A stretch of 64,000 nucleotides of DNA, from the NCBI GenBank assembly GCA_965231825.1, contig OZ246889.1:4441859-4505858 (forward strand). Direction: 5' to 3'. Every line of letters starts with the position of its first letter. The first letter of the stretch is position 1. A program made the translations under genes and the position numbers. The stretch is from Acidobacteriota bacterium. Lineage in GTDB: Bacteria > Acidobacteriota > UBA6911 > RPQK01 > JAJDTT01. Shown here piece by piece: positions 8,444 through 8,556 of this stretch. The notes beneath the pieces are model-generated. The model was given only the letters and a program-made list of their open reading frames with translations, made no database searches and was not told where the DNA came from.

Positions 8444-8556
8444 GAGTTCGGCGGCTAGGAAACCGCCGCTCCCGTTCGGCGGCTAGGAAACCGCCGCTCC
8501 CGTTCGGCGATTGGAAATCGCCGCTCCTGTTCGGCGATTGGAAATTGCCGCTCCTT
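8444..8556. repeat. tandem array of ~4 copies of a 28-bp hairpin-forming repeat (family A)
   Basis: Period 28 bp: cggcggctaggaaaccgccg ctcccgtt x2, then cggcgattggaaatcgccg ctcctgtt and a truncated copy. Each unit has a 5-6 bp GC stem with a 7-8 nt loop followed by a CTCCC tail. Lies between the PSCyt and DUF1501 genes of cassette 1. Confidence 0.7.

Follow-up and report, generated by a model that had tools for sequence, protein, structure and literature searches.

We report that three intergenic repeat loci in a 64,000-nucleotide stretch of the genome of an Acidobacteriota bacterium (contig OZ246889.1; this whole stretch is referred to as the window) probably represent a GGAG-footed family of elements resembling repetitive extragenic palindromic (REP) sequences and bacterial interspersed mosaic elements (BIMEs), a family linked to a REP-associated tyrosine transposase (RAYT)-like enzyme and amplified into unusual head-to-tail arrays. 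Read with GGAG first, the repeat unit is built like a REP, with a GC hairpin behind an unpaired tetranucleotide foot. A first-pass annotation of the window had named REP-like elements as the natural comparison, and this is borne out by covariation in the hairpin, by a high dispersed copy number, and by the presence of such hairpins on the flanks of Y1 genes.

The repeat unit and its hairpin

On the top strand, each unit consists of a GGAG(C/G) foot, a GC stem of 6 to 8 bp, a pyrimidine-rich 6-nt loop (UUUCUU/UUUCC), and a tail of 4 to 5 nt; the loop is A-rich when read on the opposite strand. Foot variants GGAC and GGAA occur beside GGAG(C/G). Two types of unit differ in a covarying closing pair and in the tail, with C-G and GAAC in type A and G-C and CAUU in type B. 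Units occur in two forms, the first being head-to-tail 28-bp arrays that close with a conserved terminus and the second being A and B blocks opposed across a core hairpin with their feet outward, an arrangement like that of BIMEs or of REP doublets forming hairpins (REPINs).

Base pairing was evaluated in 129 unique units that had been collected with an nhmmer profile, in which columns are independent and pairing is not enforced. In this set, 95.8% of the stem cells were paired, versus 85.1% in shuffles, a level reached by none of 500 shuffles, and there were 118 double-sided stem changes, versus 45.5 in shuffles. Covariation was seen at three of the seven stem pairs. Pair 6-15 was G-C in 63 units and A-U in 54, the closing pair was C-G in 65, G-C in 30, and A-U in 14, and pair 7-14 was C-G in 96 and U-A in 14. 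The hairpin is under selection. The first-pass annotation had also described the unit as a hairpin, and in an RNA folding check every unit folded as a hairpin of 6 to 8 bp. Predicted folding energies of single units range from -10.9 to -15.1 kcal/mol for RNA and are about -7.5 kcal/mol for DNA. In RNA form, the strand with GGAG first (-15.1 and -14.5 kcal/mol) is 3 to 4 kcal/mol more stable than its complement (-12.1 and -10.9 kcal/mol), because it gains a G-U pair.

Architecture of the three loci in the window

A degenerate pattern spanning two units matched the window eight times and had no match in 100 dinucleotide shuffles. All three loci are intergenic, and in each of them the array starts 0 to 3 nt past the stop codon of the upstream gene.

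Locus 1 (8449..8554, minus strand) holds four A-type units arranged head to tail, as judged with Tandem Repeats Finder (TRF) and by reading the register, and the minus strand, which is the mRNA strand, reads GGAGC-GGCGR..YCGCC-GAAC. The first two units (8449-8476 and 8477-8504) are identical 28-mers, the third (8505-8531) has 27 nt, and the fourth (8532-8554) has 23 nt and one stem mismatch. TRF reported a repeat at 8446-8554 with a period of 27/28, 4.0 copies, and 92% matches, as well as an additional higher-order period of 55 bp. The array begins at the base adjoining the TAA stop codon (8555..8557, minus strand) of a PSCyt2/PSD1 gene. On its other side lies a 65-bp terminus (8384..8448, minus strand), which comparison with orthologues identifies as the conserved, non-hairpin end of the inserted element and which reads AACTCCGGTAGAACATTGGGCC...GGGCGATTGAAACGGTGGCTCCCC on the minus strand. 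The ACTCCRG..AACA boundary of this terminus recurs at many acidobacterial arrays.

Locus 2 contains a B array of nine head-to-tail B-type units (26529..26777, minus strand; GGGAGG-GGCGR-UUUCUU-YCGCC-CAUU on that strand). Eight units are intact (26529-26751; seven 28-mers and one 27-mer), and the ninth, which is degenerate (26752-26777), abuts the TGA stop codon (26778-26780) of a PQQ-propeller gene; TRF reported 26530-26764 with a period of 28 and 8.4 copies. The array is followed by a 53-bp core (26476..26528, no strand assigned) with the hairpin GGGGGGAC-GGA-GTCC, which is homologous to the core found between inverted arrays in acidobacterial composite elements and which resembles the GGGGGAC..GTCCCCC hairpin beside RAYT-like genes. 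The inverted side (26424..26475, plus strand) is made up of an A-type unit (26447-26475; GGAGC-GGCGGC-TTTCTT-GCCGCC-GAC) and a degenerate hybrid unit (26424-26446). The inverted unit, the core, and the B array form a REPIN-like composite with the feet outward.

At locus 3, an A block (62930..62990, plus strand) sits immediately 3' of the TGA stop codon (62927-62929) of an outer membrane protein (OMP) beta-barrel gene and comprises two GGAG-first A-type units, the first degenerate and the second reading GGGAGC-GGCGG-TTTCCAA-CCGCC-GATC. It is separated by a 36-bp core (62991..63026, no strand assigned), with the hairpin GGGGG-ATCTG-CCCCC...CTCTACAG, from a B block (63027..63109, minus strand) of three B-type units in reverse orientation, one of them degenerate, which lies upstream of a DUF454 gene. 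Unit spacing at this locus is 26 to 29 bp. The first-pass annotation had listed three head-to-tail 28-bp arrays of four, nine, and about five units; TRF and the register confirm this for loci 1 and 2, whereas locus 3 consists of two opposed blocks around a core. It had not listed the core and inverted units of locus 2 or the terminus of locus 1. Its view that the open reading frames (ORFs) across 26317-26978 are artifacts also holds, as the codon-usage model picks none of them, and their positions overlap the array or are antisense to the PQQ gene.

We also observed that the unit adjoining the stop codon is the most degenerate one in both window arrays (the stem mismatch at 8532-8554 and GTCGTG in place of GCCGCC at 26752-26777), which is typical of edge units that escape homogenization.

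Unit number at orthologous sites

In the window, the gap between the PSCyt and DUF1501 genes measures 185 bp and contains four units. In a relative with 96% identity (L103 and L104), the gap is 119 bp and contains a partial unit and one full unit (about 1.5 units) together with a matching terminus, and in orthologues with 83% and 78% identity (L105 and L106), it is a clean 19 bp with a stop codon, a Shine-Dalgarno sequence, and a start codon but no element. The terminus of locus 1 behaves likewise, since it accompanies the element in the 96% relative and is missing from the empty sites. The earlier proposal that the locus-1 array was inserted into the PSCyt-DUF1501 operon gap is thereby upheld. 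At the junction with the PQQ stop codon, where the window has nine units, there is one unit in a 90% relative (L113), a degenerate unit with a core hairpin in an 88% relative (L114), and no unit in relatives with 64% and 75% identity (L107 and L115). At both of these independent sites, the elements are insertions that subsequently expanded, and their copy number shifts between close relatives. Of the functions that the first-pass annotation had listed, namely an mRNA stabilizer, a ribosome decoy, a recombination hot spot, and a miniature mobile element, the evidence favors the last.

The segment of L113 orthologous to window positions 26301-26777 (L113 4737-6440) carries, besides its single B unit, a different Y1 HUH gene (311 amino acids; NHFH...YVELN) with inverted GGGACAGTCT-type repeats on its flanks, similar to those of TIRYT genes. 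The intergenic region at locus 2 is an insertion hot spot.

A family dispersed over many genomes

The two-unit pattern was scanned over 185,579 species genomes and identified at least 102 loci, of which at least 73 lie in eight Acidobacteriota metagenome-assembled genomes (MAGs); the richest of these MAGs have at least 25, at least 13, at least 11, and at least 10 loci. Near-identical units, cores, and termini are common to at least 73 loci in at least eight acidobacterial genomes, the units consisting of GGCGRCAAGAAAGYCGCC with the tail GCTCC-CGTT (type A, closing pair C-G) or CCTCC-CAGT (type B, closing pair G-C). The first-pass annotation had allowed that the consensus might be confined to its three loci; the scan found near-identical units at many intergenic acidobacterial sites. 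About 29 of the 102 listed pattern matches are false positives outside the family. These include matches in coding sequences (L006, L029, L046, L057, and L093), classical GTAG REPINs (L017, L021, and L098), G-rich repeats of Streptomyces, and chance matches, none of which are members.

The GGAG-first arrays, (GGAG-stem-UUUCUU-stem-tail)n, end either in the ACTCCRG..AACA terminus or in a core of 55 to 80 bp (…GGGGGGCAGGGGGGACGGAGTCCCCACTCTAC…), beyond which units of the other type form an inverted block. Locus 1 of the window has the terminus form, and loci 2 and 3 have the form with a core and an inverted block. Among the 73 listed acidobacterial loci, inverted neighbors had their feet outside in 36 cases and inside in none. 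Unit clusters lay outside called genes in 165 of 189 cases. Array coordinates in six complete MAG chromosomes, which were used to look for a replication-strand bias, included few stand-alone arrays. Viral contigs gave no match to the elements, which are therefore not phage borne.

Sibling families, in which GGAG precedes a hairpin with another stem, were found in Verrucomicrobiota (L008, L012, L031, L047, L067, and L090) and in L061. We noticed that other lineages have GGAG-foot hairpin families of their own with differing stems, some of them in 28-bp tandem arrays (L047, L031/L067, L008/L090/L012, L061, and L100), and that the hosts comprise Akkermansiaceae, Udaeobacter, Opitutaceae, a GC-rich MAG labeled Enterobacteriaceae, and a member of the Thermoanaerobaculia, the last with a REPIN that has a GGAG foot. 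A further observation concerns L042, in which the terminus motif itself is tandemly repeated at about 295-420 (GAACTCTGGAGTAAAATTGACGAGCC, at least three copies), with 17 units present within 8 kb.

Association with RAYT-like Y1 HUH genes

HUH…Y proteins are encoded within the array-bearing loci L005 (2813-3487), L012 (54-821), and L061 (4037-4491) and score 27 to 35 bits against the Pfam model Y1_Tnp (cut-off, 23). The nearest solved structure to the RAYT-like protein is E. coli TnpA-REP (4ER8; E = 1.2e-5), which comes ahead of ISDra2 TnpA. The Y1 gene of L061 has inverted GGAGG-hairpin units on both sides, the downstream side consisting of nine or more units in a 28-bp array. The closest genome to the window (L108) and three other acidobacterial assemblies (L109-L112) encode homologues of the L005 protein. 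The Y1 genes of L108-L112 are bracketed by modules of about 60 nt with a GGAGG-GGGGGAC…GTCCCCC hairpin and a second hairpin of the form stem-A-rich-loop-stem-GCTCC, a layout that matches the core and A unit of window locus 2. The Y1 gene of L112 has genuine units on its flanks (GGGCGGTAGGAAAACCGCCCCTCC and AGGCGGTAGGAAAACCGTCGCTCC). In L108 and L110, the Y1 gene stands between an FG-GAP gene and a rotamase/TPR gene, a conserved context that a vertically inherited RAYT would be expected to have.

A metagenome scan added 80 loci encoding relatives with 35 to 59% identity. Perfect GC hairpins followed by CTCC had a density of 1.16 per kb up to about 300 bp from the gene, versus 0.13 per kb in the remaining sequence; one such element was present at 27 loci, and elements on both sides were present at 16. 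Where full 1.5-kb flanks were available, which was the case at 36 loci, 24 elements lay within 150 bp of the gene, compared with about 1.8 per 150-bp bin further out. At these metagenomic loci, the GCTCC foot is constant and the stems vary by locus; the A-type stem of the window is itself found beside Y1 genes, in L135 on both sides (CGGCGGTTTGGAAACCGCCGCTCC) and also in L118, L172, and L128. RAYT-like genes are flanked by hairpins of this type. In light of this, the GGGAG(G) motif, which the first-pass annotation had read as Shine-Dalgarno-like, is better explained as a REP foot, since GCTCC/GGAGC stays constant beside RAYT-like genes on either strand while the stems vary.

Other mobile elements were seen close to these genes and units. 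In L108, a DDE_Tnp_1 insertion sequence (667-1806) lies directly upstream of the RAYT-like gene, and most of the hairpin module on that side seems to have been displaced by it. In L005, a group II intron without an ORF (2159-2803; RF02005, 166 bits, plus a domain V/VI model) lies in the loop of the unit beside the RAYT-like gene. The window contains, at 49085-49174, a fragment of about 80 nt that is homologous to the 5' part of this intron (reverse complement GTGCGCCAGGCTAACTGGCACAAG...), gives no Rfam hit, and abuts a half unit, AACCGCCGCTCC; L062, near its array at about 284-391, was grouped with these two cases. Units may serve as homing targets for introns, as terminators do for class C introns.

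Gene neighborhood and nearest genomes

Locus 1 lies between the PSCyt2/PSD1 gene (8555-11149, minus strand) and a DUF1501 gene (7023-8369, minus strand), locus 2 between the PQQ-type beta-propeller gene (26778-28166, minus strand) and an M19 dipeptidase gene (24955-26301/26388, minus strand), and locus 3 between the OMP beta-barrel gene ending at 62929 (plus strand) and the DUF454 gene, which likely starts at about 63130 (plus strand). A second PSCyt-DUF1501 cassette (53450-55996 and 52049-53419) has a gap of 30 bp; the first-pass annotation had given 186 and 30 bp for the two gaps, and we measured 185/186 and 30 bp. The DUF1501 protein of the window has 96% amino acid identity to a protein of the "Candidatus Aminicenantes" MAG GCA_026706325.1, contig JAPOYZ010000409.1 is syntenic with the window over about 15 kb at 87 to 91% nucleotide identity, and the PQQ protein has 88 to 91% identity to proteins from several complete Acidobacteriota MAG chromosomes. 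These matches assign the window to an acidobacterium and not to a planctomycete. An exact look-up of the DUF1501 protein of the window gave no entry. The two PSCyt2/PSD1 and DUF1501 cassettes (7023-11149 and 52049-55996) are found here in Acidobacteriota, while such pairs are usually tied to Planctomycetes; DUF1501 homologues with 60 to 70% identity are present in Acidobacteriota, Planctomycetes, and other MAGs.

Discussion

In the explanation that we favor, the hairpin and foot would be recognized, as single-strand DNA, by a RAYT-like Y1 HUH tyrosine transposase whose gene lies elsewhere in the genome, and this enzyme would seed copies into intergenic DNA, typically just 3' of a stop codon. 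The closeness of the foot-side array ends to stop codons, for which figures are given below, also supports this reading. Slippage or unequal exchange would then alter the number of copies in a cluster; a 55-bp period and degenerate edge units are the usual signature of these processes after insertion. That a Y1 enzyme mobilizes the units is what we infer from the hairpins, their feet, and their place beside the RAYT-like genes.

Several points weigh against this explanation. The units lack the GT[AG]G foot of canonical REPs and have GGAG(C/G) in the same geometry instead, and head-to-tail organization is rare among described REPs (PMC3733652). In the other genomes, 108 of 134 pairs are 28-bp head-to-tail pairs, but this proportion is partly imposed by the search pattern, which inflates the counts of both head-to-tail pairs and the 28-bp period. 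No RAYT-like gene is present in the 64 kb of the window. The proteins of L005, L012, and L061 have NCBIfam REP_Tyr_transpos as their best model, with 57 to 74 bits, which is under the cut-off of 80. The hairpins flanking the Y1 genes of L108 and L109-L111 have GGGGG rather than GGCGG stems and are in direct orientation, which is more IS200-like; assigning an enzyme to the GGCG-type units of this lineage is accordingly tentative.

A more far-reaching version, which we put forward tentatively and consider unlikely, is that GGAG-footed hairpins make up a REP super-family of their own, the third after the GTAG- and CGTC-tagged ones into which Di Nocera et al. sorted REPs (PMC3733652), that the Y1 enzyme itself makes the head-to-tail arrays, and that the host co-opts them. 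Each inserted unit would then recreate a target next to its foot, so that insertion would be self-targeted and rolling-circle-like, and the Shine-Dalgarno-like GGAG with its hairpin behind a stop codon would tune decay or translational coupling in operons such as PSCyt-DUF1501.

It is also conceivable, although we give it rather low credence, that the arrays are first of all RNA elements of the host. Hairpins placed behind stop codons with a Shine-Dalgarno-like GGAG(G) motif would act as 3' exonuclease barriers, as weak terminators in tandem, or as decoys for ribosomes and would thereby govern how strongly the flanking cistrons are expressed relative to each other, and mobility would be incidental. 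The position of the arrays agrees with this to some extent. With a rough codon-usage gene caller and arrays of at least two units, the foot-side end faced a stop codon in 53 cases and a start codon in 34, the foot-first strand thus usually being the mRNA strand of the upstream gene. The median gap to the stop codon was 23 bp, and 36 of the 53 gaps were no longer than 30 bp, whereas the opposite end was a median of 117 to 204 bp from the next gene; this asymmetry, however, is partly due to the terminus or core occupying the opposite side. Among co-directional gene pairs, the orientation bias was just 33:18, and composites show both orientations. The foot is kept beside RAYT-like genes on either strand. 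The GGAG-first RNA is the more stable strand by the folding energies given above, and at pair 7-14 all 26 non-Watson-Crick cases give G-U on the GGAG strand and none on the other; however, this asymmetry is weakly reversed at other pairs (10:3 and 6:5), and the signal may stem from one amplified subfamily.

Termination was considered as well. On the mRNA strand of B arrays, an alternative register between units gives a 7-bp stem followed by UUUCUU, and such stems make up 7 of the 18 sites in 19.5 kb that look like terminators. However, 18.4 such sites were expected from shuffles, and the kinetically favored hairpin within the unit is followed by GAAC or CAUU and not by the U-tract of an intrinsic terminator. 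In locus 2, the near-palindromic stems of adjacent B units allow this second pairing register (26528-26758, minus strand; seven terminator-like matches), in which the 3' arm of unit n pairs with the 5' arm of unit n+1 around the loop AUUGGGAG, UUUCUU following. E. coli REPs are established modulators in 3' untranslated regions (UTRs) (bioRxiv 10.64898/2026.03.23.713779), and by analogy the transcribed hairpins here probably also act as barriers to 3' exonucleases or as modulators, in a secondary role. Close relatives do with no unit or one unit at the same sites, and effects at the RNA level are likely a by-product.

Plain minisatellites, that is, a hairpin-prone 28-mer that arose locally and was spread by slippage, recombination, or gene conversion without a dedicated transposase, are improbable. 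The change in copy number between close relatives, the degenerate edge units, and the 55-bp period all fit slippage or unequal exchange. However, slippage can neither place one and the same unit, terminus, and core at dozens of unlinked intergenic positions across at least eight genomes nor make new insertions at formerly empty sites, and hairpin-and-foot elements cluster around the ends of RAYT-like genes.

We think it very improbable that the loci encode a small RNA (sRNA) of the CsrB/RsmZ type, whose hairpins titrate a protein by presenting GGA. Some plus-strand loops do hold GGA (CTAGGAAA, TTGGAAA, and CAGGAAT), and there is a weak match to the Rfam family RsmW (22 bits versus a gathering score of 52; E = 0.14). 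However, most loops are AAGAAA, without GGA, and the many copies per genome within operons and 3' UTRs fit poorly with a few sRNA genes. Promoter-like sites number one in 19.5 kb, with none at the arrays, and no Rfam family reached its gathering score across the window, matches to the arrays being at chance level. Degenerate or spacer-less CRISPR (clustered regularly interspaced short palindromic repeat) arrays, which the 28-bp palindromic repeats might bring to mind, can be dismissed, as the first-pass annotation had done, given that the units are contiguous without spacers, occur in both orientations inside one locus, form many short loci per genome, and are flanked by PSCyt/DUF1501, PQQ propeller, M19 dipeptidase, OMP, and DUF454 genes and not by cas genes.

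Our preferred reading, a REP/BIME-like family with a RAYT-like enzyme, can be compared with several known systems. The REP/BIME and RAYT "REPtrons" of E. coli, Pseudomonas, and Stenotrophomonas (PMC2817692, PMC3116915, and PMC3479197) share with the elements described here a short GC-rich hairpin that carries an unpaired, conserved tetranucleotide foot on its 5' side, a high copy number at extragenic sites that are often beside stop codons, sub-families whose stems show compensatory changes, inverted pairs separated by a spacer (REPIN-like), and a low-copy, syntenic Y1 HUH gene flanked by matching hairpins, which here is found in related genomes and not in the window. They differ in their foot, GT[AG]G instead of GGAG(C/G). 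Here, moreover, head-to-tail arrangement at a fixed 28 bp dominates, the host belongs to the Acidobacteriota, and the associated proteins are longer (about 220 to 255 amino acids), have an N-terminal RLPHW region, and fall under the NCBIfam equivalog cut-off for RAYTs. The feet-outside composites at loci 2 and 3 resemble REPINs and BIMEs, while the prevailing head-to-tail form departs from the BIME pattern. The GTAG-1 REPs described in Thauera sp. MZ1T (PMC3733652) are similar in their very short stems (5 bp), in being mostly grouped into arrays on the flanks of operons, and in having been found through tandem-repeat searches, but they have a GTAG foot and another sequence and belong to a betaproteobacterium.

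Within the Acidobacteria, the TIRYT or "TIRtron" genes (terminal inverted repeat-associated counterparts of RAYT genes; PMC3733652 and PMC6006769) are also Y1 HUH genes flanked by non-GTAG repeats, and their GGGGWSAS-type motif resembles the GGGGGAC core hairpin. Quentin et al. described class 3 Y1 genes in Acidobacteria and Planctomycetes and about 600 "atypical" hairpins in Solibacter (PMC6006769); the Solibacter class-3 "atypical REP" hairpin (CAGAGCCGCGACCGTCAGGGAGCG, foot CnGA) is unrelated in sequence to our units. Their table of REPs has no GGAG-foot class save for one unrelated case with a double foot (PMC6006769). Subclass 2.1 Y1 proteins have been reported to be without REPs (PMC3733652 and PMC6006769), and the proteins here, with NHVH, WQ, and YI..NP motifs, could fit subclass 2.1 or 2.7. 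Insertion sequences (IS) of the IS200/IS605 type also combine a Y1 HUH enzyme with sub-terminal hairpins, and the flanking modules of L109-L112 are in direct orientation, like left and right IS ends; however, the Y1 gene here is not multi-copy, the hairpins disperse without the gene, and the arrays of the window are gene free. No description of the unit sequences was found in the literature by sequence-string and keyword searches.

The mycobacterial interspersed repetitive units (MIRUs) are head-to-tail intercistronic repeats that lie in operons next to a stop codon and vary in copy number between strains; they measure 40 to 100 bp, are not simple hairpins, and have no known link to a Y1 transposase. 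The arrays described here are thus similar to MIRUs in being operon-internal head-to-tail arrays beside a stop codon with varying copy number and differ in size, structure, and the Y1 link.

Taken together, the kind of element is known, and what is new is the GGAG foot, the head-to-tail arrays of fixed period, and the acidobacterial host. Work on REPs and RAYTs has so far dealt almost wholly with Proteobacteria, GT[AG]G feet, and inverted pairs, and the same logic is now found in Acidobacteriota, with the sibling families in Verrucomicrobiota and other metagenomic lineages widening it further. The associated Y1 clade, formerly unassigned or reported to be REP-less, now provides a candidate enzyme-substrate pair for how HUH enzymes read a foot. 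In addition, the arrays account for many spurious ORFs and for TRF or CRISPR-like matches in such MAGs, and the natural series of zero, one, four, and nine units inside operons offers material for studying the effects of REP arrays on mRNA.

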